Source: Candidatus Rokuibacteriota bacterium
GTDB taxonomy: Bacteria > JAUVQV01 > DATDCY01
Reading direction: 5' to 3'
DNA length: 32,905 nt
NCBI GenBank assembly: GCA_031406795.1
Contig: JANOHV010000104.1
Span: 1-32,905, forward strand
In this document: positions 1 to 14,075 of the stretch, piece after piece
Position numbering within the stretch: the stretch's first letter is position 1
How the letters are laid out: each line of letters begins with the position of its first letter
Position numbers and translations under genes: made by a program
Notes under the pieces: generated by a model
What the model saw: only the letters and a program-made list of their open reading frames with translations
Database searches by the model: none
Told to the model about the DNA's origin: nothing

Positions 1-828
1 CTGGATGTCCTTGACCCCGCCGATGCGCCGGAAGGCCTTCTCTTCGATCACCCGCAGCAGCTTCGCCTGCAGGTCGAAACGCATCTCGGCGATCTCGTCG
101 AGGAAGATCGTGCCGCCGTCGGCCAGCTCGAAGAGCCCCTTCTTCGTCCCCTTGGCGTCGGTGTAGGCGCCGCGCTCGTAGCCGAAGAGCTCGCTCTCGA
201 GCAGCTGCTCGGGCAGCGAGGCGCAGTTGACGGCCATGAACGGGCGCTCGGCGCGCGCGCCGGTGTAGTGCAGCGCCTTCGCGACCAGGTCCTTGCCGGT
301 GCCGCTCTCGCCCTGGAGCAGCACGGTGGAGGCGCCGGAGGAGGCGACCCGCGCGACCAGGTCGAGCACGGCGCGCATCGGGGCGCTGACCGCGACCACC
401 CGGTCGAGGGAGAAGCGGGCCGGCTGCGCCGGGCGCAGGCGCGGGACCTCCCCCCGCAGGCGGCGGGGGTCGGGGCCCGTCCTGATCGAGAGCTTGACCC
501 CCTCGAGGTTGAACGGCTTGTTCAGGTAGTCGAAGGCCCCGGCCTTCATCGCGGCCACCGCGGTGTCGACCATGCCGTAGGCGGTGATCATGATGACGAC
601 GATCTCGGGGTCCGCCGCCTTGAGCTTCTGCAACACCTCGATACCGCCCATGCCGGGCAGCTGGACATCGAGCAGGACCAGGTCCGGCGAGGACTCGCGC
701 GCCAGGCGCAACGCGCTCTCGCCGTCCTCGGCGGTGGTGACCTCGTACCCTTCCTTGGCGAGCTCCTGCTGGAGCGACCAGCGGATCAGGTACTCGTCGT
801 CGACGACCAGAATGCGTTCTTTTGTCAT
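1..828 (-). CDS. Sigma54-dependent (NtrC-family) response regulator, C-terminus runs off the window edge
   Basis: Not in the ORF track; translated by hand from ATG at 828: [19 protein letters not shown] (receiver domain, [14 protein letters not shown]), then AAA+ Walker [25 protein letters not shown], and Walker [10 protein letters not shown]. Frame is open to position 1. Confidence 0.95.
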
Positions 829-870
829 AGGCCCGGCTTCCCTCAGTGGCTGTCCGTGAATGCGCGGGTG

Positions 871-900
871 ATTATAGCGCGTTCTGCGGGCCACGCGGAA
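871..900 (-). promoter_or_regulatory. Putative sigma70 promoter for the response regulator
   Basis: Minus strand TTCCGC-N18-TATAAT, with a perfect -10 at 871-876 about 40 nt upstream of the ATG. Confidence 0.4.
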
Positions 901-959
901 CCTCTTCGTCAGCGAGAACGCCCTGTCGCGCGTCTGACCGACCTCGGGGAAGCTCAGGC

Positions 960-2450
960 CTACGCCGGGACGCGCGTCTCGACGACCGGTATGCGCACCG
1001 TGAAGGTCGTGCCGACCCCCGGCTCGCTCGTCACGCTGACGGTGCCGCCGCCCTGCTCGACGATCTTGCGCGTGATCGACAGCCCCAGCCCCGTGCCTTG
1101 GGTGCGCGTCGTGTAGAAGGGGCTGAAGATTTTTTCGCGGCTGGCGGGCGGGATGCCGACCCCCGTGTCGGCGACCGTGGCCACGATGAAGCTCTGCCCC
1201 CCGTCGGCGTCCGCCTCGTCGCGCAGCGCCGTGCGCAGCGTCAGATCGCCGCCCTCGGGCATCGCCTGCGTCGCGTTGAGAATCAGGTTCAGGAAGGCCT
1301 GCTCCAGGTGCTTGCCGTCGGCCATCGTCCGGGGCAGGCCCGCGGCGAAGTCGCGATGGACCCGGACCTTCGTCCGCGCCGGGTTCGGCAGCGCGATGAA
1401 GCTCGCCCGGTCGAGGATCTCGTTGACGTCCACCGGGCTCGGTTCGCCGGTGAGCGGCTGCGCGTAGTTGAGCAGGTCGCGGATCGTCTTGTCCATGCGG
1501 TTGCACTGGTGCAGGATCTGGTCGGCCACCTCGCGCCGCGGGTCTTCGCGCGGGAAATCGTCGGCGAGGACCTGCACCGCCCCGGAAATGCCGGCGAGCG
1601 GGTTCTTGATCTCGTGAGCGACGTTCGCCGCCAGCTCGCCGATGCTCGCCAGGCGCTCTGCGCGAATCAGCTGCTCGGTGTGGAAGCGCTCGATCTCGCG
1701 CTGGGTGGTATCGAGCTTCTCGATCATCGAATTGAGGCTGCGACCCAGGCTGCCGAGCTCGTCGCGGCGGGGCAGGCGCACGCGGGCCGAGAGATCGCCG
1801 CCTTCGGCGCGGCGCATCGCCTGCACGAGGTTCGAAATCGGCCGGTTGACCTGGACAGCGAAGATCAGCCAGATCGCGAAGCCGACCAGCGCGATGGTCA
1901 CCACCGCGGAACTGGCGAGGAACGTCCGGTTCTCGGCGACCTTGGCGTCCGTCTTCTTCATCGAGAGGCAGAGCTCGAAGATCGACAGCACCTCGCTGCT
2001 GGTCACGTGGCAGGCGCGGCAGGCGGTGTCGTTGCGGATCGTCTCGACCATGCAGAAAGCGTTGTAGCCGTGCCCGCCGCGGTACGGCATGCTCGGCACG
2101 CCGGCCTTGAAGATCTCCAGGCCGATGTCCTCGATCGTCAGGCCGACTTCCTGCTTGTCGGCGGACTTGGTGACCTTGCCGTTCTCGTCGAAGATCCGCA
2201 GGCTCTCGATGTCCGGGACGATGCCGATGCGCTCGAAGATCCCCTGGACGTCCTGGGCGCACTCGCCGCGCATGTCGTGCTGGATGCTCTTGACGATGGC
2301 GTGCGTCAACACCGCCGCCTGGTCCTTGGTCGTGTCGATAAACTGGTTGCTCTGGGCCTCGATGATGTAGAAGTACGAGCCCCCGACGCAGAGAACGAGG
2401 ATCAGCGTGACCAGCGCGGCGATCTTGCCGCGCAGCGTTGTCAGCCACAT
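960..2450 (-). CDS. Sensor histidine kinase (periplasmic domain with CxxCH, HAMP, HisKA, HATPase)
   Basis: Two TM segments flank a periplasmic region containing CRACH. HAMP (RRDELGSL), H-box AHEIKNPL, N-box NLILNA, and G-boxes DTGVGI and GTGLGL follow. Confidence 0.95.
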
Positions 2451-2491
2451 GGCGTCATGGGGTCTGGCATGGAGAAGGAAGTTCGAGGCGG

Positions 2492-2707
2492 CGGGAGGGG
2501 ATCAACCCCTCCCCTACAGGAACAAAGACAGATCTGACATGCGTCCCAAAGCTCGGAAACGGCGCAGGGTCGAAAAGGGGATTCTTCATAGGTAGATTCG
2601 CCGTATGGGCGGGAGGGGGTGAACCCCTCCCCTACGGGAACGGGGAGAAATGTGTCGTTCAGCCCCAGGCCTCGACACGGCGTAGGGGCGGGATTCATTC
2701 CCGCCCG
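2492..2707. repeat. Cluster of three GTAG-type REP palindromes
   Basis: cgggaggggatcaacccctcccctac (2492-2517), cgggagggggtgaacccctcccctac (2610-2635), gtaggggcgggattcattcccgcccg (2682-2707). Confidence 0.85.
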
Positions 2708-2721
2708 AACCTGCGTGCCGA

Positions 2722-3567
2722 TCACGAAGCGACCCGCGCGCCGGCGGGCGTGGGCAGCTCCGCGGGCGCGGCCGACGGCAGGTTTTCGAAGACCGTCTGG
2801 TACGAGACCACCGGGCAGGCGGTGCACTCCAGGCAACGGATGCAGTCCACCGAGCGCTCGTTCTGCCAGATGCTGATGTCCATCGGGCAGTTCTCGCGGC
2901 AGCGGTCGCAGCGCGTGCAGGAGCCGTGGTCGACGCGCATCTGGTAGACGCTGAAGGAGTTGAAAAACGAGAAGATGGTGCCGAGCGCGCAGGCCGTGCG
3001 ACAGAACGGCCGCTTCGCCGCGGCTGACCAGACGGCGAAGAGCGAGAGGATCGCGAGCTTGATGAAGAACATCTTCACCAACATCGCGCGGATGCTCTCG
3101 TCGAGCAGCGACCAGGGGATGCCGGCGATCAGGATGCCGTCGGGGCAGAGCTTCGAGAACCAGGGCTCCTGGGTGATCGCCGAGAGGGTGAAGACCAGGC
3201 CGGCGAGGACCAGGTACTTGGCGTAGGTCAAGGCCTTGGGGATGGCGATCTTGACGCTGCGCACCTTGTACAGCAGGTCCTGGAAGAAGCCGAACGGGCA
3301 GAGCCAGCCGCAGCACATCCGGCCGACGACGGCGCCGATGGCCGCCAGATAGCCCACCACGTAGGCCGGTATCGCCCCGCCGACGATCGCGAAGTGCTGG
3401 ATCGTGCCGATCGGGCACGCGAAAAGCGCGCCGGGGCAGGCGTAGCAGTTGAGCGTCGGGGTGCAGTACTCTTTGAGCGAGCCCTGGTAGATCGCCTTGT
3501 TGGTGAAGCCGAGCAGATACCCGTTCTGCCCGAACGTCGCGAGGATTTGAAAAAGTCGTCGTTTCAT
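2722..3567 (-). CDS. Membrane-bound 4Fe-4S binding protein (NapH/MauN/RdxA-like polyferredoxin)
   Basis: LNCYACPGALFACPIG, CCGWLCPFG, KLCPDG and PFCRTAC motifs among TM helices; C-terminal ferredoxin motifs CTRCDRCRENCP and CIRCLECTACP. Confidence 0.92.
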   Translation of the reverse strand: MKRRLFQILATFGQNGYLLGFTNKAIYQGSLKEYCTPTLNCYACPGALFACPIGTIQHFAIVGGAIPAYVVGYLAAIGAVVGRMCCGWLCPFGFFQDLLYKVRSVKIAIPKALTYAKYLVLAGLVFTLSAITQEPWFSKLCPDGILIAGIPWSLLDESIRAMLVKMFFIKLAILSLFAVWSAAAKRPFCRTACALGTIFSFFNSFSVYQMRVDHGSCTRCDRCRENCPMDISIWQNERSVDCIRCLECTACPVVSYQTVFENLPSAAPAELPTPAGARVAS

Positions 3568-3622
3568 GTCACCCGGGAATCGTCATCGCGCCGGCGACGC
3601 TAAATATTTGTTAGCCTTCACG

Positions 3623-3692
3623 CGGGAGGGTATGAAACCCTCCCCTACGACCCGGATCGTTGACGACGTAGGGGCGGGATTTATTCCCGCCC
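3623..3692. repeat. Inverted REP doublet (REPIN/BIME-like)
   Basis: cgggagggtatgaaaccctcccctac, spacer, gtaggggcgggatttattcccgccc. Confidence 0.85.
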
Positions 3693-3704
3693 AAAATCGC
3701 AACG

Positions 3705-3742
3705 GCATCGCGCTTTGTTGGGGGGTCAACCGACCCCGATGC
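3705..3742 (-). promoter_or_regulatory. Bacterial SECIS-like stem-loop
   Basis: 12 nt after the in-frame UGA (3752-3750): GGGGUC-GGUU-GACCCC (3737-3722), with an outer GCAUC/GAUGC pair. The apical loop starts with G and lies 18 nt from the UGA. Confidence 0.7.
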
Positions 3743-3875
3743 AGCTGAGTCAGACGAGTGTTGCATTGAAGAGCGTGTCGCCGATCTGATCGGCGAGCAC
3801 GCCCCAGACCAGCGCCCCGACCGCGAGCGCGGCGGCGACGATAGCGACGATCTTTTCCCGGCGGGGCCGATTCAT
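3726..3875 (-). CDS. Small membrane selenoprotein with UxxC motif (resembles CD1871A-like CxxC microproteins)
   Basis: MNRPRREKIVAIVAAALAVGALVWGVLADQIGDTLFNATLV-[TGA=U]-LSCIGVG*. One TM helix, a U-x-x-C-I-G-x-G terminus, a downstream SECIS-like hairpin, and a position directly upstream of a 4Fe-4S membrane protein. Confidence 0.8.
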
Positions 3876-3904
3876 CGAGTTACACCACGGGGACGAGGAC
3901 GGCC

Positions 3905-5089
3905 CTAGACCTCATCCCCGGTCGAAGGGAGGTTCATCAGGATCTCCAGCGCGCGGCGGAAATCCGCGGACGCCCGTTTGAGATCCCCCCCCGCTTCGCT
4001 GCCCTGCGCCCGGCGGAAATAGGTGCCGGCGTCAAGCGGGTTGAGCTCGAGCGCGGCCTTGAACTTCTCCTCCGCGTCCGCGGACTTGCCCTGCCTGGCG
4101 AGCACGAGGGCCAAATTCGAGACCGCGGGCGTGTACGTCGGGTCCAACGCGACGGCCTTCTCGAAAGCCGCGAAGGCCTCGTCGATCTTCCCGAGCTCCA
4201 GCAGCGCCTCGCCCTTGCCGGTGTGCGCGGTCACGTCGTTCGGGGCGATCGCCGCCGCCGCGCTGAACTGTTCCGCGGCCTGCTGCACGCTCTTCGGGTC
4301 CTTCTTGGCGAGCAGCAGCTGGCCGAGGAACACGCGGGGGGCGGCGTAGGTAGGATCCGCCGCCGCGGCCAGTTCGAGCTGCTCCATGGCCTTGTCACGA
4401 TTGCCGCGCTGGAACATCGTGCGGCCGAAGTTGAAGTGCCGCAGCGCCTTCGAGTCGGGCTTGTAGACCGGCACGGCAGCCACGGCATCGGCCTTGGGCG
4501 CCTCGCGCACGCCGAGCAGGATCTCGACCGACTCGCGGATGCCCTCCCCGGTGGAGCGCAGGTAGCTCGCCGTCTCGTGGACGATCTTGCCCTCGGCGTT
4601 GATCACCGCGGTCGAGGGTGTCGCCACGACACCAAACGCGTTGTAGGTCTCGAGGCCGGCGTCGATCACGATCGGCACCGTGAGCTTGAGGCTCGTCTTG
4701 AGCTCCTCGATCTGCCGCCGGTCGTCCGGGCCGAGGCTCAGCCGGTTGACGTTTACCGCGAGAACCTGAAAGCCCTTGTCGGCATACTGGGTGGCGAGCT
4801 TCTGCGCGTCCTCGAGAGCCGGCGTCGAGCGCGGGCTCCAGGTGGCGAAGAACACCAGGAGCGTTGCCGGCTGCCCCTTGACCTGGGCGAGCGTGTACTC
4901 CTTCCCGTCGAGAGTCTTCAACGAGAACTCCGGCACTTCCATCCCGACCTTCAGGTATTTGAAGGCCGCCCCCGCCTGGGGGATGGCGAAGAGCATGACG
5001 AGCAGGGCTGCGAATCCCGTCAGTACGTGGGTCGCCGTGCGCCACCCCCGACGGGGCGCTGCGGCCGGCGGCGGACCTTGAAGCGGCAT
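3905..5089 (-). CDS. Exported TlpA/ResA-like thioredoxin-fold (SxxS, no active-site Cys) + TPR protein
   Basis: Signal peptide; PEFSLKTLDGK...LLVFFATWSPRS...FQVLAVN...FGVVATPST redoxin pattern; C-terminal TPRs; RBS AAGGAGGAG. Confidence 0.85.
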   Translation of the reverse strand: MPLQGPPPAAAPRRGWRTATHVLTGFAALLVMLFAIPQAGAAFKYLKVGMEVPEFSLKTLDGKEYTLAQVKGQPATLLVFFATWSPRSTPALEDAQKLATQYADKGFQVLAVNVNRLSLGPDDRRQIEELKTSLKLTVPIVIDAGLETYNAFGVVATPSTAVINAEGKIVHETASYLRSTGEGIRESVEILLGVREAPKADAVAAVPVYKPDSKALRHFNFGRTMFQRGNRDKAMEQLELAAAADPTYAAPRVFLGQLLLAKKDPKSVQQAAEQFSAAAAIAPNDVTAHTGKGEALLELGKIDEAFAAFEKAVALDPTYTPAVSNLALVLARQGKSADAEEKFKAALELNPLDAGTYFRRAQGSEAGGDLKRASADFRRALEILMNLPSTGDEV

Positions 5090-5101
5090 GACCCTCCTCC
5101 T

Positions 5102-5782
5102 TCAGTAGAGCAGGAACTGTTTCTCGGAACCGTGCGGATTGTGGCACTCCGGACACTGCTTGCTCGCGCTCTTCTCGATGTGCGACTGGCTGCGGCTCTG
5201 GGCATGGCACTGCATGCACAGCGTCCGCACCCCCATGACCAGGAAGGCCGGGTTGGCCGAACCGTGCGGATCGTGGCAGATGCTGCACTGCCCGGCACCG
5301 AGCGGCCCGTGCAGGTACTTGTACCCGGTTTTCGGGTCGTGGCACGTGTTGCACAGCTTGGCCTCGGACACCGGCGAGGTCCGGCCGACGCCCTGCGGGT
5401 GACAGGCCTTGCACTCCCCTTCCTGGACCGGGTCGTGGTAGCGGTACGAGCGTCCCCCGGCGTCCTTGGTCTGGTACTCGAATGTCGACTGCCGGGATTC
5501 CGCCCCGGACTTGACCACCAGGGTGTTCTTGCCCGGGACAAGCGCGAGCGGGCCGGTGAACGCCTTCCCGACCTGTTTGATCCCGTCGACCTTGCGCCCG
5601 TTGAGCACGACCTCGAGCGTTCCCGAGGACCCGCTCCCGATCAGGGTCAGCGGCGAGCGATCGAGCGTGGCGCCATCCGGCGGGGCGAGGATCTTGAGCT
5701 CCTCGCCCGACGCGCCGCCGGCGGTGATCAGGGTTGCCGCCAGGACGACGCCGGCAACAGCGGCGGAACCGAATCGTTTCAT
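5102..5782 (-). CDS. Exported pentaheme cytochrome c with N-terminal beta-rich (Ig-like) domain
   Basis: Start moved to the ATG at 5782 (MKRFGSAAVAG, RBS GGAG). Motifs CKACH, CNTCH, CSICH, CMQCH, CPECH with HGP and CHxPHGS paired-CXXCH repeats. Confidence 0.92.
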   Translation of the reverse strand: MKRFGSAAVAGVVLAATLITAGGASGEELKILAPPDGATLDRSPLTLIGSGSSGTLEVVLNGRKVDGIKQVGKAFTGPLALVPGKNTLVVKSGAESRQSTFEYQTKDAGGRSYRYHDPVQEGECKACHPQGVGRTSPVSEAKLCNTCHDPKTGYKYLHGPLGAGQCSICHDPHGSANPAFLVMGVRTLCMQCHAQSRSQSHIEKSASKQCPECHNPHGSEKQFLLY

Positions 5783-5789
5783 GTCGCTC

Positions 5790-6785
5790 CTACTGCTTGC
5801 CGAAGAGCCGCGTGAGCGCCAGCTTGTAGCTCTCGACGGCCTTGGCGAGGTCGCCCTTCTTCTCATAGGCCTTCCCCATCTCGTAGTAGACTTTCTCGGG
5901 TTTGGGGTTCATCTTGATCGCCGACTGGAAATATTCGAGGGCCTTGTCCGTTTCGCCCTTCTTCGCGTGGGCCATGCCGAGGCCAACCTTGGCGTCGTTG
6001 CTGGTCGGGTCGCACTTGATGACGTAGGTGAACTCCCCGATCGCCTCGTCGACCTTGCCGTCGTCGAGAAAGGTGTGCCCGAGCAGGATGTGCGCATCGC
6101 AGAAGCCGGGGTCGAGCTTGAGGATCTCCTGAAGCTTCGCGACCGCCTTCTCCTTCATCCCGCGCTCCATCAGCACCATCGCGAGGCCGTACATCTTCTT
6201 GGCCTCCTTCTCCTCGGTGCTCGCCGCGGGGCCCTCCTGGGGGCGGATGGCGAGCTCGGCGTCCCCGGCCTTCTTCTCCCCGAGGGCCACCAGGGCGTAC
6301 TCGTTGGTGATCAGCTCGAGGTCAAAGGCGATCTGGTTCTCCTCGTGAATGAGCACGCCGGCCTTGTCGACCCAGATGACTTCGGGCATCGCCACGACGC
6401 CAAGCGTCCCGTAGAGCTCCTCGGTCCCCATCAGGATCGGAAAGCCCGCGCCTTCGGCGAGGGCCTTCGCGTCCTCGGCCTTGCCCTTGCCGAAGTAGAC
6501 GCCGAGGTAGACGACGCCCTTCTCCTTCATGGCCGCCCAACTCTTGCCGACGCGCTTGAACGCGTTGGCGGTGCTCGGGCCCTCCTTGAAGAAGACCATC
6601 ACGTGGGCCTGGCCCGGGGCGAAGCCGGCGTCGGCGCCGGCGGTGTCCTTGAGCGTGAACGCCGGCATCTTGTCGCCGTTCTTGACCTTGTTGAAACTCT
6701 GGGCCGGTGCGGCCAGCGCGATTAGCGCGGCCAGCGCGAAGATGGCCGGAAGGACCCGGGTGCGGTTCTTGATGCGGCTTGTCAT
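5790..6785 (-). CDS. Exported degenerate thioredoxin-fold (no CxxC) + TPR protein
   Basis: Signal peptide; VKNGDKMPAFTLKDTAG, VMVFFKEGPST in place of WCxxC, LGVVAMPEVIWVDK (cis-Pro loop); C-terminal TPRs. Confidence 0.8.
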   Translation of the reverse strand: MTSRIKNRTRVLPAIFALAALIALAAPAQSFNKVKNGDKMPAFTLKDTAGADAGFAPGQAHVMVFFKEGPSTANAFKRVGKSWAAMKEKGVVYLGVYFGKGKAEDAKALAEGAGFPILMGTEELYGTLGVVAMPEVIWVDKAGVLIHEENQIAFDLELITNEYALVALGEKKAGDAELAIRPQEGPAASTEEKEAKKMYGLAMVLMERGMKEKAVAKLQEILKLDPGFCDAHILLGHTFLDDGKVDEAIGEFTYVIKCDPTSNDAKVGLGMAHAKKGETDKALEYFQSAIKMNPKPEKVYYEMGKAYEKKGDLAKAVESYKLALTRLFGKQ

Positions 6786-6801
6786 GCTCAGCCTCCCCGC
6801 C

Positions 6802-8130
6802 CTAGTACTTGACCGCGGTCTCGCGGTCGTAGGTCTGCTCGCGGTGGCAGCCGACCACGCAATTGCCGCCCGTCGGCAGCTTCGTGAACTTGACCGGCAG
6901 CTGCCAGCCGCCGGTCCCGAAGGGAACCTTCTCGCGGATGTGCTTCTCCTGGTCGCCGGCGTGCATCTCGTGGCAGGCCTTGCAGCTGCGGCCCTTCTTC
7001 TGGTTGATGTGGAAGTAGTGCAGGTTGCGGTTGCCGTTGCGGAAACCGGTCAGCGTCGAGGTGACCTCGGTCAGCGCCATGTCCTTGTTGTGACAATCCC
7101 AGCAGATGGCGTAGTTCTCGGTCTTGTATTCCATGTAGAACTCGGGCGGGAAGAACTTCTTGAGGATCTTCACGTAGTCCGAGCCGTGCGTGTCGTGGCA
7201 GGCATAGCAGTCGTCCTGCTGGACCGGGCCGTGCAGCGACTTGGAGGCCAGCACCCGGGAACCGATGTCCTTGTGGCAGCTGTAGCAGATCTGCTTGGTC
7301 GAGAGCTTCAGCTGGCGCACATAGTCGGAGGAGTGCGGCGTGTGGCAGCCGGTGCAGGTGCCGCTCTTGAGCGCGCCGTGCTGGGTCTTGGCCTTCTTGA
7401 CGTGCTCCTGGACCTTCGAGTGGCAGGAGAAGCACAGCGCGGTCGGCTCGTTCTTGAGCAGGTACTTGTAGGCGCCGCTGTGGGAGTCGTGGCAGACGGA
7501 GCAGGACTCGGTGACCGGCTTGTGCACGCTCTTGCGGGTGAACTCGGCCTTGCGGTCCTCATGGCAGAGAAAGCACAGCGTGTTGCCGGAGGCCTCGAGC
7601 TGGTACTTGTAGTCCGAGGCGTGCGGGTTGTGGCAGACGTTGCAGTCGCCGGCGGCGACCGGGCCGTGGAGGAACTCCTTGTTCGTCTTGTTGTTCTCGT
7701 GGCAGGAGAAGCAGAGCGCGGAGGTCGTCGGCTTGCGCATCTGGAACTTCGCGTCGGACTGGTGGGGATCGTGACAGGCGATGCAGTCGCCCATCGCCAC
7801 CGGCCCGTGGATGAACTTGCCCTGCAGCTTCTTCTGGAGCGACTCGTGACAGATGAAACACAGGTCCTTGCCCTTGGCGGCGATCGTGAAGCTCGCCGAA
7901 CTGTGCTTCTCGGGGGTGTAGCTGGTGCGGGTGCGGTGGCAGGCGGTGCACACGCCGGCGCCGACCGGGCCGTGGACGTACTTGGCCTTGCCCATCCCCG
8001 GGTGGCACTTCTCGGAGAGACAGTTGTCGCCGCCCGGCGACTGTGCCCGAACGGGAACCGCGGCAAACAGCGCGGCTGCGACGAGCGCAATCAGGACGAA
8101 CAGCGTGTGGTGCAACTTGGTACCCTGCAT
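6802..8130 (-). CDS. Large exported multiheme cytochrome c (13 CxxCH + CX4CH + CX3CH; up to 15 hemes)
   Basis: Start moved to the ATG at 8130 (RBS AAAGGAGG). Signal peptide, repeated HGP(V)..CxxCHxxH..LCxxCH units, N-terminal CLSEKCH and C-terminal CVVGCH. Confidence 0.95.
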   Translation of the reverse strand: MQGTKLHHTLFVLIALVAAALFAAVPVRAQSPGGDNCLSEKCHPGMGKAKYVHGPVGAGVCTACHRTRTSYTPEKHSSASFTIAAKGKDLCFICHESLQKKLQGKFIHGPVAMGDCIACHDPHQSDAKFQMRKPTTSALCFSCHENNKTNKEFLHGPVAAGDCNVCHNPHASDYKYQLEASGNTLCFLCHEDRKAEFTRKSVHKPVTESCSVCHDSHSGAYKYLLKNEPTALCFSCHSKVQEHVKKAKTQHGALKSGTCTGCHTPHSSDYVRQLKLSTKQICYSCHKDIGSRVLASKSLHGPVQQDDCYACHDTHGSDYVKILKKFFPPEFYMEYKTENYAICWDCHNKDMALTEVTSTLTGFRNGNRNLHYFHINQKKGRSCKACHEMHAGDQEKHIREKVPFGTGGWQLPVKFTKLPTGGNCVVGCHREQTYDRETAVKY

Positions 8131-8228
8131 GTCGCAAGCCTCCTTTGTGCTACGAACCATCACGCATCTCCCGGTAGACCGCCAGGCCACTGCAAGCTCC
8201 CTCGCGCACCGCCGCGGTTCGTCTACGA

Positions 8229-9284
8229 TCAACCGTAGCTGTGGAGGCCCGAGAGCACGAAGTTCACGCCGATGTAGGTGAAGATCACCGCTGCGAAGCC
8301 GATCACCGAGAGGACCGCAGTGCTTTTGCCGCGCCACCCCGCGGTGAAGCGGGCATGCAGGAAGGCGGCGTAGATCAGCCAGGTGATCAGGGACCAGGTC
8401 TCCTTCGGGTCCCAGCTCCAGTAGGTGCCCCAGGCGTAATTGGCCCAGGCCGCGCCGGTCACGATGCCGAGCGTCAGCAGCGGAAAACCGACCATGATCA
8501 TCTTGTAACTCAGGTCATCGAGGATCCGCAGACCGGGGAACAGGGCGGCCAGGCGCTCGTGGTAGAGCGCGCCGACGTACCAGAACAGCGCGAAGATCCC
8601 GACGGCGGCGATCCAGGAGACGATCTTCACCCCCGAGGAGTGGCTCGCGAACGAGGCCGCGAACAGATGCGGCTGGGCCACGCCCGCGACTTTCTGCACG
8701 AGGAAGTCCAGCATCGTGGCGGCGAACAGCGTGAACATCGTCACCAGGCTCGCCATGCCGACGACATAGAAGGCGTCCTTGCGCTTCTCCGCCGAGAGAA
8801 TCAGGTAGAGGATGCTGACCCCGAAGGATATCGTGAAGGCGGCATAGCCGAGAAAGCTGGTGATGACGTGCACGGTGAGCCAGTTGCTCTGGAGCGCCGG
8901 CACGAGCGGCTCGATCTCCTGCGAGATGTTCGGCGCGATGGAGATCGACGCAATCGCCAGGAAGCCCAGCGGCGCGGCGACGACGCCGAGCGCCCGATTG
9001 CGGTAGACCCGTTCGAAAATCAGGTAGATCAGGATGATCGACCAGGACCAGAAGACCATCGACTCGTACATGTTGGAGAGCGGGATGTGCCCGAACCCCA
9101 TGGCGTAGGATTCGCGCCAGCGCAGACCGATGGCCGCGGTCTGCACCAGAAACCCGACGACGGTCACCAGGGTCGCCGCCAGGCCGACCTTTTCGTTGCG
9201 GAAGGCCAGGTAGACGAAGTACGCCACCGTCGCCACGAGGTACAACACGAGCGATACGTTGAAGACCGCCGAACTGTTCATCAT
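8229..9284 (-). CDS. ccsA: Cytochrome c biogenesis system II heme channel/synthase subunit (ResC/CcsA; named CcsB in some annotation schemes)
   Basis: GHIPLSNMYES, LVPALQSNWLTVHV, WWD motif WGTYWSWDPKETW, C-terminal GLHSYG. Confidence 0.95.
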   Translation of the reverse strand: MMNSSAVFNVSLVLYLVATVAYFVYLAFRNEKVGLAATLVTVVGFLVQTAAIGLRWRESYAMGFGHIPLSNMYESMVFWSWSIILIYLIFERVYRNRALGVVAAPLGFLAIASISIAPNISQEIEPLVPALQSNWLTVHVITSFLGYAAFTISFGVSILYLILSAEKRKDAFYVVGMASLVTMFTLFAATMLDFLVQKVAGVAQPHLFAASFASHSSGVKIVSWIAAVGIFALFWYVGALYHERLAALFPGLRILDDLSYKMIMVGFPLLTLGIVTGAAWANYAWGTYWSWDPKETWSLITWLIYAAFLHARFTAGWRGKSTAVLSVIGFAAVIFTYIGVNFVLSGLHSYG

Positions 9285-9359
9285 TCTCTCCGGGTCCCTG
9301 AATCCAGATGGCCGTTCGTTATTTCTAGCACAAACCCCATGCCCCTGCCAAGGAGCTCG

Positions 9360-10850
9360 CTAGCCGCGGGCCTCACCCACGGCATGGATCGCGTCGCCGA
9401 GACGCTCGAACTCCTCGGTGAAGCGCTCGCGATTCTTGTTGGCGTTGCCCGCGAGCAGCACCTCCGTCTTGCCGCCGACCTCCCGCAGCCGCACCCAGAC
9501 CCGGCGGTGCGAGGAGAAGAAGGCGAACCAGAGCCCGAAGACCATCAGCGTGCAGCCGGCCCAGATCACCCAGACCCCGGGGTCGTAGACGACCTGGAGC
9601 CCCGTGTACTGCAGGCTGCTGAAGTCGACGAGCGTCAGATCGACCGGCAGGCCCGCGACCGTCTTGAGGTCGGGCCGGAGCTTGAAGAGATAGGTCAGCT
9701 TGCTCGTGCCGTCGGGGAGCAGCACCTGAACCGCGGCCACGGGGTTCTTCGCCTGGTTCGAGCGGCTGGTCGGCCGCCCCTGTTCGTCCTGCGCGAAGTC
9801 CGGGAAGATCCGCTGCATCTGCAGCCGCACGCCCGTCCCCGGGACTTCGAGGGTTTCGCTCCCGGTGAAGCTCAGGTCGTGCCCGGCGCCGGTCTTGAGG
9901 TCCACGGCGCGGATGCTCGCCTTGAGCCCGCGCCCGGTGTCGCCGAAGCTCGACTGGTAGAACCAGATCCCGTCGTATTGCAGCGGTGTGTTGACCTCGA
10001 TCCGCACAGCGGGCAACTCCTTGCCCTGGTCGATGACGGTGAGCGTGCTGAAAAAGTCCTTCGGCCGCTGTCCGCCCGGGTAGTAGTCCACCTGGAAGTC
10101 GTCGCAGCGCACCTTGAACGGCAGGGTCGCCATCCGGCTCTCGTCGCCGCGCATCATGATCTGGTCGGAGGTTTCCCCCTCCGTGATCTGCATGTAGGCC
10201 TTGAAGCCGTAAACGCTGCCGAGGAGGCCGCCGACGAAGATCATGATGATGGAAAAGTGCGTCGCATAGATGCCGAGCCGGCTGTAGGCGCCCTTTTGCC
10301 CGAAGAGGTAGAACGCGTCGTCGCGGTCGCTCTCGCGCTTGCCGAAGCCGCCCTTTTTCAGCGCGGCGGCAGCGACCGCGGCGGCCTCCGCCCGCGGCAG
10401 GCGCAGCGAGAGGGTGCGGCGATTGGGGCTGGCCTTGAAGCCGGACTCCTCGAGTTCGACCTTGGGGCGCGCCATGATCCGCCAGGTCTGCGGCAGGCGG
10501 CGCAGAGAACAGACGATCAGGCTGGTGCTGAGCAGGCCGAGCAGCGCATAGAAGTACCAGGTCTGATAGAGATGGAAAAAGCCAATGCGTTCCGAGATGT
10601 CGAATGCCCGCTGCGCGCGGCCCGCGTCGCCGAAGAAATCCTGGAACAGGCGCAGGTTGTCGGCGACTTCCCCGATGTTTTTCTGCTGCAACACGGTGCC
10701 GATGATCGAGATCGACGCGAGGATGATCAGGGTGACGACCGCGACGTGGACCGAGCTGAAGAACGAGAGCAGCGGGTCGTACCACGGCTTCGTGACGACG
10801 GCCGGCGGGGCGTCTGCGGGCGGGGGGGAAGTCTGTTTTTCCTCAACCAC
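9360..10850 (-). CDS. resB: Cytochrome c biogenesis system II protein ResB/Ccs1
   Basis: SIIGTVLQQ, Y.TWYF..LL...SLIVCS, THFS, VNTPL.YDGI.FYQSS, GLQVVYDPG, HRRVWV. Start placed at GTG 10850 behind AAGGAGAG; the ORF track uses 10871. Confidence 0.93.
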   Translation of the reverse strand: MVEEKQTSPPPADAPPAVVTKPWYDPLLSFFSSVHVAVVTLIILASISIIGTVLQQKNIGEVADNLRLFQDFFGDAGRAQRAFDISERIGFFHLYQTWYFYALLGLLSTSLIVCSLRRLPQTWRIMARPKVELEESGFKASPNRRTLSLRLPRAEAAAVAAAALKKGGFGKRESDRDDAFYLFGQKGAYSRLGIYATHFSIIMIFVGGLLGSVYGFKAYMQITEGETSDQIMMRGDESRMATLPFKVRCDDFQVDYYPGGQRPKDFFSTLTVIDQGKELPAVRIEVNTPLQYDGIWFYQSSFGDTGRGLKASIRAVDLKTGAGHDLSFTGSETLEVPGTGVRLQMQRIFPDFAQDEQGRPTSRSNQAKNPVAAVQVLLPDGTSKLTYLFKLRPDLKTVAGLPVDLTLVDFSSLQYTGLQVVYDPGVWVIWAGCTLMVFGLWFAFFSSHRRVWVRLREVGGKTEVLLAGNANKNRERFTEEFERLGDAIHAVGEARG

Positions 10851-10890
10851 GGGGGGGGACTCTCCTTGCATTCACGGTTGCCGTAAAGCA

Positions 10891-10925
10891 GTCACGGCCG
10901 GCCGGACCAGCCGGCCGGCCGTGAC
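10891..10925 (-). terminator. Perfect 15-bp hairpin downstream of cytochrome c3 (partial terminator or mRNA stabiliser)
   Basis: GTCACGGCCGGCCGG-N5-CCGGCCGGCCGTGAC, followed on the minus strand only by a weak TGCTTT tail. Confidence 0.6.
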
Positions 10926-10995
10926 CTCAATTCTTCGCTCGCACCCTGTCCGGTCGTCGCCGACCCTTCAGGTGCGTCGGAGGCGCGGCTGAGGA

Positions 10996-11430
10996 CTACT
11001 CGTCCGCGCCGCCGTGACACTCCTTACACTTCGTCGGAGCCTTGGCGGCCGTAGCCTTGGCATCCGTCTTGTGGCAAGCGATACACCGGCCCGTCTTGGC
11101 GTGGATCATCTCGTAGGTGTTGACCTGCTTGTCCTTGGCCTCGGGACCGTGGCAGTCGAAGCAGAGCTTGGCCGGCTTGCCGCCTTCCTTGAGCTCCTTA
11201 TCCGTGTGGTGACAAACGGTGCAGCCAAGGTCGGCCCCGTGCTTCTTGTGGTTGAATGTGACCGGATTCTTCGCCTTCTTGCCTTCCTTGATCTTCGCCG
11301 CCGGCCACTTGTCGATCGGCTTGTCAATGGTCAGCTTCCCGTCCGGCGTCATGTGATGAGACGCGAAGGCAGCGCCGACCGCGAAGACCGAGAACATCAC
11401 CATCATCCCAACGACAATACTTTTCTTCAT
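10996..11430 (-). CDS. Tetraheme class III cytochrome c3
   Basis: Signal peptide; VTFNHKKH, CTVCHH, CFDCH, CIACH, CKECH; strong RBS GGGAGGAG. Confidence 0.95.
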   Translation of the reverse strand: MKKSIVVGMMVMFSVFAVGAAFASHHMTPDGKLTIDKPIDKWPAAKIKEGKKAKNPVTFNHKKHGADLGCTVCHHTDKELKEGGKPAKLCFDCHGPEAKDKQVNTYEMIHAKTGRCIACHKTDAKATAAKAPTKCKECHGGADE

Positions 11431-11487
11431 TCTTTACTCCTCCCTTTCCGTGTTCAGTAAGGTTTACTTGCTGACAAAAACTTGTAC

Positions 11488-11517
11488 TTCATACACCCGC
11501 GGGCGGCGGGTTGTCAA
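11488..11517 (-). promoter_or_regulatory. Putative sigma70 promoter of the cytochrome cluster
   Basis: TTGACA-N18-TATGAA on the minus strand upstream of cytochrome c3. Confidence 0.4.
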
Positions 11518-11582
11518 CCACCACCGGCGAGGCTGAACCGACAGTGCTTTCCTTTCGACGCGCGATCGTAAATAATCAGCCG

Positions 11583-13511
11583 GTGAAGTCCGCCAAATGG
11601 CTCATTTTCGCGGTATTGCTGATCTTGACCGCGGCCGTGTTCCGCCCGCTTCTCGAGAATGATTTCATCAACTTTGACGACGACCAGTACGTCACCGACA
11701 ACCGCCATGTGCAGCAGGGATTGAAACGGCAGGAATTCGCGTGGGCCTTCACCACGCGCGATGCGGCCAACTGGCACCCCCTGACCTGGCTCTCCCACAT
11801 GCTCGATGTGGAATTATATGGACTGAATCCGCGCGGTCACCACCTGACGAGCCTCCTCCTCCACCTGGCGAACGCCGGCCTCCTTTTTTTCGTTTTCAAC
11901 CGGATGACGGGAGGACTGTGGGCGAGCGCCTTCGTGGCCGCGGTTTTCGCCGTGCACCCCCTGCACGTGGAATCCGTAGCCTGGGTCGCGGAGCGCAAGG
12001 ACCTGCTGTCCGCCTTCTTCTCGCTGCTGACCCTGTGGGCGTATCACCATTACTCCAGTCGCCCCGGGGTTGGCAGATATGTCCCGGTGATCGTTCTTTT
12101 TTCTCTGGGGCTCATGGCTAAACCGATGGTAATCACCCTGCCGCTCGTCTTCCTGCTCCTGGACTACTGGCCCCTCGGGCGCCTGTCCGACGGGCGCGGG
12201 ACGGGAGGCTCCCTGCGACTCTCCACCCTGGCCCAGCGACTCCTGGAGAAAGCCCCCTTGTTTCTGCTCTCGGCGGGATCGGCGGCAATCACGCTTTCGG
12301 CACAGAAGTCGGGCGGAGCCGTCCAGGATGCGGATTTTCCGCTCGCCATCCGTGCTTTCAACGCGCTCGCGAGCTACGCCCACTATCTCTGGAAGATGGT
12401 CTGGCCGCGGAACCTCGCCGTTTTTTATCCGCATCCCGGCAACGACCTGCCGTGGTGGCTTGGCGCAGGCGCCGGGCTCCTTCTGCTCGCGAGTTCGATT
12501 GCGGTCGTGCGGGCGGGACGGCGGCTGCCTTTCCTCCCCGTCGGCTGGTTCTGGTATCTCGCGACCCTCATCCCCGTCATCGGCCTCGTGCAGGTCGGCA
12601 GACAGGGAATGGCGGACCGCTACACGTATCTCCCACTCACCGGCGTCTTCATCATGGTCGCCTGGGGCGCGCCCGCCCTCCTGAGCGGCTGGCGCCGGCG
12701 GGACCGGGCGCTTGCCCTGGCGGCGCTCCTGATCCTGCCGGCCCTCGGGGTCCGCGCGCACCACCAGGCCGCCGCCTGGCGGGACAGCCTGACTCTCTTC
12801 TCGCAGGCACTGCTGGCAACCCGCGACAACTGGCTGGCCGAATACAACGTGGGTCTCCTCCTCGCCGGGCGGGGGAATGCCGCCGGGGCGGTCGCGCATT
12901 ACCGCAGCGCGCTGCGCATCAGGCCCGACTACACCGAGGCCCACATCAACCTCGGCACCCTTCTCGCCGCCGAGCGCAAATTCGAGGAGGCGGCAGGCCA
13001 TTTCAGGGAGGCGATCAGCCGGGATCCGCTGATGTCCAGGCTCGGGGCCAACACGGCATTCGTCAGCCTGGGCAACGTCCTCTTGGAACTTGGCCGGACC
13101 GACGAGGCCGAAGGGATGTATCAGCAAGCACGCCGGGCCGACCCCCGTGATCCGGCGCCCCTCTACTGTCTCGCGCTCCTCGAGACCCGGCGATCGAATC
13201 TCCCGGGGGCCGAGACCCTGTACCGGGAGGCGCTGCGGATGAAACCCGACTACCAGGAGGCCGCGAACAACCTAGCGATCCTCCTGGTGAACCTCAGCAG
13301 AACCGGGGAAGCCGTTGGCACGCTGGGGCGGATCCTCGAGCTGAAGCCCGATTTTGCCCAGGGCCATTTCAACATCGCCACGATCCTCTCCACGCAGGGA
13401 AAGATCGATCTGGCGATCGACCATTATCGTGCGGGGCTCCAGATCGAGCCGGGCAACGGGGAAGCCCGGCTTGCCCTCGAGCGAGCCCTGCGGGCGGTGT
13501 CGCCCCGGTAG
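11583..13511 (+). CDS. TMTC-like GT-C membrane glycosyltransferase with C-terminal TPRs
   Basis: FINFDDDQYV, NWHPLTWLSH, VHPLHVESVAWVAERKD, AKPM, MADRYTYLP, WRDS.TLF, then TPRs. Start uncertain (GTG 11583 or TTG 11511). Confidence 0.88.
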   Translation: MKSAKWLIFAVLLILTAAVFRPLLENDFINFDDDQYVTDNRHVQQGLKRQEFAWAFTTRDAANWHPLTWLSHMLDVELYGLNPRGHHLTSLLLHLANAGLLFFVFNRMTGGLWASAFVAAVFAVHPLHVESVAWVAERKDLLSAFFSLLTLWAYHHYSSRPGVGRYVPVIVLFSLGLMAKPMVITLPLVFLLLDYWPLGRLSDGRGTGGSLRLSTLAQRLLEKAPLFLLSAGSAAITLSAQKSGGAVQDADFPLAIRAFNALASYAHYLWKMVWPRNLAVFYPHPGNDLPWWLGAGAGLLLLASSIAVVRAGRRLPFLPVGWFWYLATLIPVIGLVQVGRQGMADRYTYLPLTGVFIMVAWGAPALLSGWRRRDRALALAALLILPALGVRAHHQAAAWRDSLTLFSQALLATRDNWLAEYNVGLLLAGRGNAAGAVAHYRSALRIRPDYTEAHINLGTLLAAERKFEEAAGHFREAISRDPLMSRLGANTAFVSLGNVLLELGRTDEAEGMYQQARRADPRDPAPLYCLALLETRRSNLPGAETLYREALRMKPDYQEAANNLAILLVNLSRTGEAVGTLGRILELKPDFAQGHFNIATILSTQGKIDLAIDHYRAGLQIEPGNGEARLALERALRAVSPR

Positions 13512-13598: not shown

Positions 13599-14075
13599 AT
13601 GAATATCCTGAACTTCCGCGCGTACAGATGGACCGTGGCAGCGGCTCTGGGTGTTGTCGCCATGGCGCCGTCGCAGGCCGGCGCCGATGCCGGCCGGGAC
13701 CGGATGCAGCGGGGGAAGGAAGCATTCGTCTCCCAGTGCCTGAACTGCCACCAGACCGTCGACGAGGCGGCCGGAGGCTATCGCATGCAGCCTGCCTGGC
13801 AGAGGATTGTCGCGGACATGGTCGCCCGGGGGGCGAAGCTCGACGAGGCGCAGCAGGAAGCCGTCGTCGAATACGTCTCCGGCAGGATGCTGATGGTGGC
13901 CAAGTGCTCCTCGTGCCACACCTCCAACCGCCCGCTGACCGCGAGCAAAAGCCTCGAAGAGTGGAAGGGCTCGGTTGAGAACATGGTTCAGAGGATGCCT
14001 CCGAACCTGAGGCCGACCGCAGAGCAAATCGAAAAACTCACCCTTTTTCTCGCGGTGGAGCGCCCCCGCCCGTAG
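13599..14075 (+). CDS. Exported diheme cytochrome c (two tandem small monoheme domains)
   Basis: Signal peptide; CLNCH...W..IV..M and CSSCH...W...V..M repeats; RBS AAGGAGG. Confidence 0.85.
   Translation: MNILNFRAYRWTVAAALGVVAMAPSQAGADAGRDRMQRGKEAFVSQCLNCHQTVDEAAGGYRMQPAWQRIVADMVARGAKLDEAQQEAVVEYVSGRMLMVAKCSSCHTSNRPLTASKSLEEWKGSVENMVQRMPPNLRPTAEQIEKLTLFLAVERPRP

Follow-up and report, generated by a model that had tools for sequence, protein, structure and literature searches.

In System II cytochrome c maturation, the synthase formed by ResB and CcsA is accompanied by a thiol-reduction branch, in which CcdA or DsbD, a cysteine relay fed by cytoplasmic thioredoxin, works with a periplasmic thioredoxin of the ResA/CcsX type. 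To our knowledge, every textbook scheme of cytochrome c maturation and of envelope reducing pathways relies on such DsbD/CcdA-type relays. Disulfides can also be reduced by iron-sulphur (FeS) proteins: in ferredoxin:thioredoxin reductase and heterodisulfide reductase, which are soluble or cytoplasm-facing, one-electron FeS donors reduce a disulfide next to the cluster. Here we describe a pair of genes that recalls both kinds of system, found in a 32,905-nt stretch of DNA (hereafter the window), that is, contig JANOHV010000104.1 of the Candidatus Rokuibacteriota bacterium assembly GCA_031406795.1, which is one of the 278 contigs of a 4.1-Mb genome (99.9% completeness, G+C about 65-70%). The pair consists of a selenocysteine (Sec) peptide and an FeS membrane protein, encoded in a cluster with the System II genes resB and ccsA. 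A first-pass annotation had proposed that the two products form a selenium-dependent thiol-reduction conduit instead of CcdA-ResA; as an alternative it had raised a connection of the cytochromes to the quinone pool through the FeS/Sec pair. By sequence comparison, the pair is a conserved, unannotated module, and it may supply reductant to the periplasm in many anaerobes.

Like the CcdA/DsbD and ResA/CcsX branch, the pair is encoded beside resB and ccsA, shows a two-residue thiol-type redox motif on an anchor predicted to face outward, and has periplasmic WCxxC thioredoxins beside it in some loci. It goes with the absence of the CcdA/DsbD domain DsbD_TM more often than expected, yet often coexists with CcdA, as it does here. 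Unlike CcdA/DsbD, to which it has no sequence relationship (neither product matches DsbD_TM, PF02683), the pair carries Sec as the redox residue of the peptide in most members, and its reducing power would pass through FeS clusters rather than a cysteine relay. The FeS protein resembles the polyferredoxins NapH, MauN, NosH and CcoG in its Fer4_5 motif, two CxxxC(P) sites, hydrophobic helices and two C-terminal 4Fe-4S motifs, whereas it differs from them in an extra N-terminal Cys-rich segment and a W-F-S-K-L-C-P loop, and in being linked to resB/ccsA rather than to nap, mau, nos or cco genes. Its partner is a peptide of 45-50 residues with a [U/C]xxC motif and not the NapG/MauM ferredoxin that accompanies NapH and MauN. 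Across the window cluster and the contexts read, no gene for a periplasmic ferredoxin of the NapG/MauM type and no nap or mau context turned up. The chemistry proposed below would be that of ferredoxin:thioredoxin reductase and heterodisulfide reductase by analogy only; the pair, unlike these enzymes, would span the membrane, and no sequence similarity to them was found beyond generic ferredoxin motifs. The small-protein family NF040920, to which the peptide probably belongs, has no assigned function.

The features of the pair in the window are the following (SECIS, selenocysteine insertion sequence; REP, repetitive extragenic palindromic).

3726..3875, minus strand: Sec peptide, 49 residues plus stop, with an in-frame TGA at 3750-3752 followed by x-x-C
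3722..3737, minus strand: SECIS-like hairpin with a 6-bp stem and a 4-nt loop, enclosing the peptide stop codon, recognised by covariation
3568..3724, no strand assigned: 157-nt spacer between the peptide and FeS genes with REP-like hairpins, an insertion relative to close relatives
2722..3567, minus strand: NapH/MauN-like membrane polyferredoxin (the FeS protein) with two C-terminal 4Fe-4S motifs, assigned from Pfam, NCBIfam and alignments

The selenocysteine peptide

The N-terminus of the peptide is basic, and a single hydrophobic helix spans residues 9-25. When the TGA is read as Sec, the tail, about 22 residues long, ends with [U]-L-S-C-I-G-V-G and the stop codon. Homologues with the same TGA are found in two genomes of the same genus and in one genome of the same class, and in unrelated genomes Cys stands at that position. 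Across 75 homologous peptides the position is occupied by Sec in 57 and by Cys in 18, so that selenium is optional, and the selenium dependence that had been attributed to the conduit is not supported. A 6-bp hairpin with the loop G-G-G/U-U starts 15 nt after the U of UGA (53 sequences, 48 distinct). Pairing is kept in 97.6% of the cells, compared with 38-65% in slid controls, and the number of compensatory cells (16) was reached by none of 500 shuffles. The 3′ arm of the hairpin lies past the stop codon, and therefore Val/Ile changes in the last codons are compensated in non-coding sequence. This conserved hairpin is visible only by sequence comparison: the minimum free energy fold of the 71 nt after UGA was no better than shuffles (z = -0.76), and an Rfam scan of window positions 1-12000 gave no SECIS family, with only one sub-threshold, snoRNA-like match.

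The genome also encodes the Sec machinery, for which the first-pass annotation had proposed a search: selA (541 bits), the C-terminal part of selB at the start of a contig, by whose end the gene is cut, selD (351 bits) and a tRNA-Sec with the anticodon tca were all found. Because of the Sec/Cys exchange, the covarying hairpin and the presence of this machinery in the genome, we regard the product of the 49-codon frame, on comparative grounds, as a genuine selenoprotein. The selD gene (C234:8400-9320, minus strand) has one in-frame TGA itself, and selenophosphate synthetase is therefore also a selenoprotein here.

Neither Pfam nor NCBIfam names the peptide. Pfam gave no match for it or for the two Cys forms tried, and the NCBIfam model NF040920 ("CD1871A family CXXC motif-containing protein", cut-off 32) gave none for the Sec-containing sequence of the window; two Cys-form relatives, both encoded upstream of FeS orthologues, score 44.4 and 26.4 bits with that model, one above and one below the cut-off. 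A profile built from 19 Cys-form relatives retrieves the window peptide at E = 9.5e-9. By this profile match, the peptide is probably a new, Sec-containing branch of the uncharacterised small-protein family NF040920. TsoA (the LULAxC selenoprotein, NF045695) was considered as an identity for the peptide and ruled out, with no match for the peptide and none genome-wide at E ≤ 1. The name CD1871A was not found in the literature searched, and the search returned no paper describing the peptide-FeS pair, although supplementary lists of predicted selenoproteins could still contain the peptide. NF040920 is not among the 119 selenoprotein families in Table 1 of a 2026 review (PMC13188914).

The FeS membrane protein

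The FeS protein has the Fer4_5 motif and several hydrophobic helices. Its CxxxC(P) sites are C86-x3-C90-P and C189-x3-C193, the latter followed by P in most relatives and by A in the window, and its C-terminal 4Fe-4S motifs are made up of C217/220/223/227 and C242/245/248/251. To these are added the family-specific N-terminal segment C35-x-P-x2-N-C41-x2-C44-P-x5-C51-P and a loop with the sequence W-F-S-K-L-C141-P. All of these motifs are invariant or nearly so in two alignments. The scores obtained with the NapH/MauN models are under their cut-offs (TIGR02163, 50 bits against 213; NF007013, 44 bits against 234), and the 2646 relatives of the protein at E ≤ 0.001 are named only "4Fe-4S binding protein", "polyferredoxin" or "NapH".

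An AlphaFold2 model of the protein has a mean predicted local distance difference test (pLDDT) score of 71.8. A Foldseek search of the PDB with this model returned nothing at E ≤ 0.001, so no solved structure fits the membrane part, and a sequence profile run against the PDB recovered the generic ferredoxin part only. The tail of the peptide, the Cys-rich segment and the C141 loop of the FeS protein are predicted to face outward, and the CxxxC(P) motifs and the ferredoxin domain to be cytoplasmic, an arrangement that agrees with the topology of NapH.

Genomic contexts of the pair

We compared 80 FeS-protein loci, the best 80 of 547 relatives of one query; they are biased to the kin of that query and cannot be treated as independent. 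Of the 78 loci in which 200 nt or more precede the FeS gene, 75 have the peptide immediately before it, and the usual distance from the end of the peptide motif to the FeS match is 16 nt, that is, 13 nt after the stop codon. Of 20 loci of a more distant, lower-scoring FeS subfamily, 19 have a Cys peptide ahead of the gene. The two genes thus form a real, conserved pair, as had been proposed. Two arrangements with System II genes recur. What we call the window architecture (26 of the 80 loci) has the order resB, ccsA, cytochrome, Trx-TPR, cytochrome, Trx-TPR, peptide, FeS, kinase, where Trx-TPR stands for a protein with a thioredoxin fold and tetratricopeptide repeats (TPR). Compact loci (24) have the order (c3), resB, ccsA, peptide, FeS, with the end of ccsA 181-240 nt before FeS; c3, a small cytochrome, has homologues preceding resB in these loci too. 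Two further loci have another resB/ccsA arrangement and 28 have neither gene, several of these 28 having almost no upstream sequence. Upstream sequence of 3 kb or more is available for 62 loci, and in 42 of them resB or ccsA precedes the pair on the same strand; the proposed linkage of the pair to these genes is therefore borne out.

The flanks were read for 11 compact loci, of which seven have only a small c3 as cytochrome gene, three lack sequence there and one has none; an 8-heme gene lies downstream in one of them. A secreted WCxxC thioredoxin is encoded directly after FeS in 6 of the 24 compact loci, too few for a general feature of the type. Most compact loci with read flanks have downstream, with or without an intervening thioredoxin, an unannotated protein of about 640 residues, mostly followed by glycosyltransferases. 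No homology was found between this protein and the 666-residue TPR protein of the window.

Other phyla have other neighbours. Six loci share the order WCxxC redoxin, DUF6029, peptide (Cys form), FeS and an NAD(P)H-type flavoprotein (Pyr_redox_2/Fer4_20), and a seventh shares it from the peptide onward. Five loci (L117, L118, L124, L127 and L130) have DUF1573, rhodanese, MauE/DoxX, a tetraheme cytochrome, the peptide (Sec form) and FeS, followed by Sir2 in the three that extend so far. DUF1573 and rhodanese appear as selenoprotein families in PMC13188914. In one locus the pair stands between an 11-heme cytochrome and a CxxC thioredoxin, and in another it is preceded by a WCxxC thioredoxin. The lower-scoring subfamily has resB/ccsA within 6 kb in none of its 20 loci; its pair follows ftsH-folP-cdaA-ybbR-glmM in eight and tatC in four, contexts that are consistent with a general envelope function of the pair.

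A few loci depart from the usual arrangement. In a relative of the same class (L056, 6616-10000) the peptide and FeS genes are 3385 nt apart, separated by an opposite-strand gene for a CNNM-family membrane protein, and the pair can therefore be split. The FeS frame of L121 (10001-10114) is only 38 codons long, a sign of a frameshift or of faulty assembly, and in L110 (about 5000-5040) the peptide frame continues beyond C-I-G-I-G without a stop.

One RNA library contains a 348-nt contig that matches the window at about 93% identity and spans the end of the second Trx-TPR gene, the peptide and 87 nt at the start of FeS. This contig has 9 nt where the window has the 157-nt spacer, which means that the spacer is an insertion of REP-like hairpins; judged from this comparison, it is not part of the functional pair. 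The contig is also a weak hint that Trx-TPR 2, the peptide and FeS are co-transcribed in the relative, although it is no proof of a single transcript, as DNA carry-over is possible. In no run did the RNA-library contigs cover the whole of 2600-5200, and the share of the stretch present in most runs was small. REP-like palindromes of two kinds flank the FeS gene on both sides (2491-2518, 2609-2636 and 3622-3649 for the first kind; 2677-2709 and 3663-3695 for the second), and the first kind has 84 copies over 52 contigs of the genome.

Distribution relative to CcdA/DsbD and ResB

The co-occurrence of the pair with CcdA/DsbD was surveyed in 301 genomes from the phylum of one compact-locus genome, with the FeS family called at E ≤ 1e-30. 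The FeS family is present in 93 of these genomes, DsbD_TM in 258 and ResB in 264. ResB is present in all 43 genomes without DsbD_TM, and the FeS family in 32 of these. That is, DsbD_TM is missing in 32 of the 93 FeS-positive genomes, compared with 11 of the 208 FeS-negative ones. When only ResB-positive genomes are counted (n = 264), the figures are 32 of 92 carriers against 11 of 172 non-carriers (odds ratio 7.8, Fisher p = 9e-9). The 32 carriers without DsbD_TM span the window architecture, one compact locus and at least three further locus contexts. Of these carriers, 25 fall in the lower-scoring subfamily, with 20 of their loci fetched and found in several genomic contexts; the other seven are G061, G064, G065, G077, G084, G094 and G314, five of which have the window architecture and one (G084) a compact locus. 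In a second phylum the FeS family was found in 5 of 201 genomes. All five have a full-length ResB, compared with any ResB-family match in 66 of the 201; they may form one clade.

In the genome of the window itself, ResB (9360-10871) is the only strong ResB match. A second CcsA-like gene, on contig C141 (L137 1225-2136, plus strand), encodes 303 residues with a WWD motif. The gene immediately after it resembles hemA (glutamyl-tRNA reductase, an assignment by eye); the CcsA-like gene has no ResB partner nearby, and its product may be HemX-like rather than a synthase. The genome has 55 open frames with at least three CxxCH motifs. Because of the single strong ResB and these 55 multiheme frames, the System II of the window is probably the main cytochrome c synthase of the organism. 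The largest multiheme frame, on C156, has 3887 residues and 70 CxxCH motifs, and others have 30, 26, 25 and 20.

Possible function of the pair

The reading we prefer, on which we are evenly divided, is that the pair acts as an FeS-driven transmembrane thiol/selenol reductase, whose clients would be System II and further thioredoxin-like proteins of the periplasm, either alongside CcdA or in its place. What the genomes show directly is the pairing of the two genes, the exchange of Sec for Cys, the SECIS hairpin, the linkage and the co-occurrence; topology, direction of electron flow, donor, acceptor and physical contact between the two proteins are inferred. The peptide and the FeS protein would make up a membrane redox module carrying reducing equivalents from the cytoplasm to a selenol/thiol pair that faces the periplasm, where, in the window, it would serve the adjacent ResB-CcsA synthase. 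A cytoplasmic donor, either ferredoxin or an NAD(P)H-dependent FeS flavoprotein such as some phyla encode beside the pair, would first reduce the two C-terminal 4Fe-4S clusters, from which electrons would pass by way of the two membrane-proximal CxxxC(P) sites to the Cys-rich segment at the outer face (C35, C41, C44, C51 and C141). This outer site would reduce the Sec-x-x-Cys selenylsulfide of the peptide, and the reduced peptide would in turn reduce a periplasmic TlpA/ResA-like thioredoxin or, directly, the CxxCH disulfides of apocytochromes. At the level of the cell the role would be like that of CcdA/DsbD, in parallel with CcdA here and possibly as its replacement in genomes without CcdA.

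We favour export of reductant because of the outward [Sec/Cys]xxC anchor, the multi-cluster FeS protein, the thiol-redox neighbours, the flavoprotein in some loci, the resB/ccsA linkage and the excess of the pair among System II genomes without DsbD_TM. The many multiheme frames of this genome, set against its single strong ResB, also speak for a need for such a function. A role wider than cytochrome maturation is suggested by the eight pair-carrying genomes without ResB. A stronger claim, towards which we lean slightly less than away from it, is that the pair is an unrecognised FeS-based, ferredoxin- or NAD(P)H-driven transmembrane disulfide/selenylsulfide reductase and a new selenoprotein family, that is, a second and unrelated solution to the task of DsbD/CcdA, which would supply the envelope of many anaerobes and would be the sole such route in System II organisms without DsbD_TM.

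Several observations weigh against the reductase reading. The genome has four DsbD_TM genes, all on contigs other than that of the window: a rhodanese/DsbD/thioredoxin fusion, a gene beside a small CxxC thioredoxin, a canonical stand-alone CcdA and a gene in an arsenic-resistance context. Its periplasmic TlpA/ResA-like proteins with CxxC number at least nine, and one of them resembles the thioredoxin of the compact loci. On paper, then, the organism has the classical route and could do without the pair, and the claim that it acts instead of CcdA-ResA in this organism has to be given up. Across genomes, DsbD_TM is present in 61 of the 93 FeS-positive genomes of the sample, in 30 of the 49 genomes of the closest loci and in 11 of 16 distant carriers, and a strict anti-correlation of the pair with CcdA is rejected, although the negative association (32 of 93 against 11 of 208) stands. 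Furthermore, 11 genomes of the 301-genome sample lack both DsbD_TM and the FeS family. The statistics ignore kinship, and the p-value for the association overstates the case because genomes of the same kin are not independent; a completeness of at least 90% was requested for the sample, with the figures absent from the output. ResB was found in none of the eight genomes of the redoxin-DUF6029 locus type, and one further carrier also lacks it, which excludes a role restricted to cytochrome c. As to the proteins, the topology was derived from hydropathy and the positive-inside rule only, the N-terminal Cys-rich segment of the FeS protein is poorly modelled (pLDDT 45-53), and the role ascribed to NapH and MauN, its nearest named relatives, is that of a quinol dehydrogenase or an electron carrier and not of a disulfide reductase.

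One of the DsbD_TM proteins has a C-terminal WCxxC thioredoxin domain and is preceded by a rhodanese-like frame (C68; L001 859-2679, plus strand), with no TGA seen. The arrangement recalls TsoB, a rhodanese/DsbD fusion selenoprotein listed in PMC13188914.

Among the alternatives, a respiratory module survives best, and even this we consider unlikely. In such a module the FeS protein would act as NapH does with NapG, taking electrons from menaquinol or a cytoplasmic donor and feeding the c3 and multiheme cytochromes; the peptide would be a small subunit with a structural or redox role, and the resB/ccsA adjacency would reflect only the co-regulation of cytochromes and their maturation genes. 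The best named matches of the FeS protein are the NapH/MauN (TIGR02163, 50 bits) and NapH (NF007013, 44 bits) models, but these scores are far under the cut-offs of 213 and 234, and a NapG-like partner was not found. Cytochrome genes are part of the same cluster in 26 of the 80 loci, and in six distant loci the gene just before the peptide encodes a tetraheme or 11-heme cytochrome; however, among the 11 compact loci read, seven have a small c3 only and one has none (three lack that sequence), and the pair lies among housekeeping genes in 12 loci and is present in eight genomes without ResB. A heme-sensor kinase and a sigma54 regulator downstream, as in the window, are typical for respiratory operons. 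On the other hand, a [U/C]xxC motif with Sec/Cys exchange is the signature of thiol redox chemistry and not of an electron-carrier site, and the negative association with DsbD_TM would be left unexplained.

The pair could also work in the opposite direction, as an outlet of the DsbB/VKOR kind for the formation or isomerisation of disulfides, in which electrons from periplasmic thiols would pass through the FeS clusters to quinone or to a cytoplasmic acceptor. An outward [U/C]xxC and a transmembrane FeS protein would suit either direction, and MauE/DoxX and rhodanese genes are found beside the pair in five loci, MauE and MauD being linked to disulfide formation in methylamine dehydrogenase. We nevertheless hold an oxidising role to be improbable: reductant is what the products of the tightly linked genes require (resB/ccsA and those for TlpA/ResA-like WCxxC proteins), seven loci have a gene for an NAD(P)H-type flavoprotein after FeS, and in the survey, which covered the FeS family, DsbD_TM and ResB, the absence that correlates with the pair is that of the reductant carrier DsbD_TM.

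It is more doubtful still that the adjacency to resB/ccsA is meaningless, that is, that an independent housekeeping module was inherited beside System II genes in one large clade. This would fit the 80 loci being the closest relatives of one query and thus not independent, as well as the distant subfamily, with resB/ccsA within 6 kb in 0 of 20 loci. Yet the linkage is kept in two different architectures, all five carriers of the second phylum have ResB, and the DsbD_TM association is spread across several locus contexts. The least probable alternative is the handling of soft metals or chalcogens, in which a FeS protein like CcoG, a NapH-family cupric reductase, would reduce metal or Se/S species bound and passed on by the [U/C]xxC of the peptide: Cu(I), Hg(II) and ions like them are bound well by Sec and by a C-terminal CxxC, the FeS protein has a weak CcoG match (TIGR02745, E = 0.0019) and rhodanese genes lie near the pair in five loci, but no metal transporter, chaperone or resistance gene is conserved beside the pair in the contexts read, and both the resB/ccsA linkage and the DsbD_TM association would be unexplained.

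The eleven-gene cluster of the window

Besides the pair, the cluster comprises the following genes, assigned from Pfam and NCBIfam profile scans of the window translations.

10996..11430, minus strand: tetraheme c3-type cytochrome with 4 CxxCH, first gene of the cluster (PF02085 Cytochrom_CIII, 62.5 bits)
9360..10871, minus strand: ResB (CcsB/Ccs1), System II synthase subunit (PF05140, 343.5 bits)
8229..9284, minus strand: CcsA/ResC (CcsA/CcsB), heme-handling subunit with the WWD motif (TIGR03144, 294.5 bits, cut-off 187.6)
6802..8130, minus strand: multiheme cytochrome with 15 sites, namely 13 CxxCH, one CxxxxCH and one CxxxCH (Paired_CXXCH_1, 232.6 bits)
5790..6785, minus strand: Trx-TPR 1, thioredoxin fold and TPR, signal-like N-terminus, active site without Cys (Pfam and translation)
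5102..5785, minus strand: pentaheme cytochrome with 5 CxxCH, start uncertain, frame open to 5866 (Pfam and translation)
3905..5089, minus strand: Trx-TPR 2, with W-S-P-R-S where W-C-x-x-C is expected (Redoxin, 73.3 bits)
960..2450, minus strand: sensor histidine kinase (HAMP-HisKA-HATPase) with one CxxCH in a predicted periplasmic loop (Pfam)
1..828, minus strand: sigma54-dependent response regulator, truncated by the window start (Response_reg, 114.9 bits; Sigma54_activat, 167.7 bits)

The description given by the first-pass annotation is confirmed: all eleven genes are on the minus strand and were assigned to families, the contig of the window has zero DsbD_TM matches, and none of the eleven products matches a porin or NrfD-like family in Pfam or NCBIfam. 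The gaps between the genes are 4-271 nt. The upstream neighbour of c3 is a divergent gene for a TPR membrane protein (11511-13511, plus strand), and c3 is therefore the first gene of the cluster. The whole cluster was found again in two genomes of the same genus and one of the same class, which argues that it is not a chance arrangement. A scan of the cluster for transcription signals gave no promoter-like sites and 5 terminator-like sites, compared with a mean of 7.6 in shuffled sequence, and is thus uninformative on transcription units. The assignment to System II follows from the ResB and CcsA scores listed above together with the W-x-W-D-P-K-E motif of CcsA. The start of the 15-site cytochrome is uncertain, its frame being open up to 8337, and its orthologues in loci with the window architecture are 56-95% identical. 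Outside the cluster, a small dihaem cytochrome c with Cytochrome_CBB3-type domains is encoded at 13599-14075 (plus strand), and the genes after it look like housekeeping genes (gatB, gatA, gatC, glmS and glmU, named by eye without a family-library run).

Each Trx-TPR gene lies just after a multiheme cytochrome gene. Like the TPR chaperones CcmI/CycH and the thioredoxins CcmG/ResA, the two products combine a redoxin fold with TPR and a secretion-type N-terminus, and their genes are placed between cytochrome and maturation genes. Unlike in CcmG/ResA, the CxxC is replaced by S-x-x-S or absent. The first-pass annotation had noticed that both lack CxxC, and the loss is conserved: among the 25 orthologues of Trx-TPR 2 with sequence aligned at this site, 24 read W-S-x-R-S/A, and the orthologues of Trx-TPR 1 have no Cys at the active-site position either, which excludes thiol-disulfide exchange. 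Family scores are modest, with AhpC-TSA at 69.8 bits and TPR_CcmH_CycH at 39.9 bits (below its cut-off of 42) for Trx-TPR 2, and AhpC-TSA at 23.2 bits (below its cut-off of 26) for Trx-TPR 1. Given the conserved Cys-free site, the position after cytochrome genes and the sub-cut-off likeness to CcmH/CycH TPR, the Trx-TPR proteins are most likely redox-inactive adaptors that would bind apocytochromes. Two more Cys-less Trx-TPR paralogues with W-S-P-R-S are encoded in the genome (C93:3526-4218, minus strand; C225:37855-38529, plus strand), the former adjoining selA (C93:4480-5745).

The kinase gene follows FeS in loci of the window architecture. The CxxCH of the kinase falls in the stretch between the two hydrophobic segments, and all 24 aligned orthologues share it, which suggests a heme-c sensor whose periplasmic sensor domain binds the heme covalently. 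Together with the sigma54 regulator, this heme-bearing kinase probably controls the cluster.

Significance

If the pair is the missing reductant route, it would explain how CxxCH thiols are kept reduced in cytochrome-rich anaerobes, such as the 43 ResB-positive genomes without DsbD_TM, 32 of which have the pair. It would also constitute a new selenoprotein family, give a function to the unannotated small-protein family NF040920 and add a new type of partner to the NapH superfamily. The link to System II, together with the inverse relation to CcdA/DsbD, makes an alternative envelope reductant route a specific and testable hypothesis.

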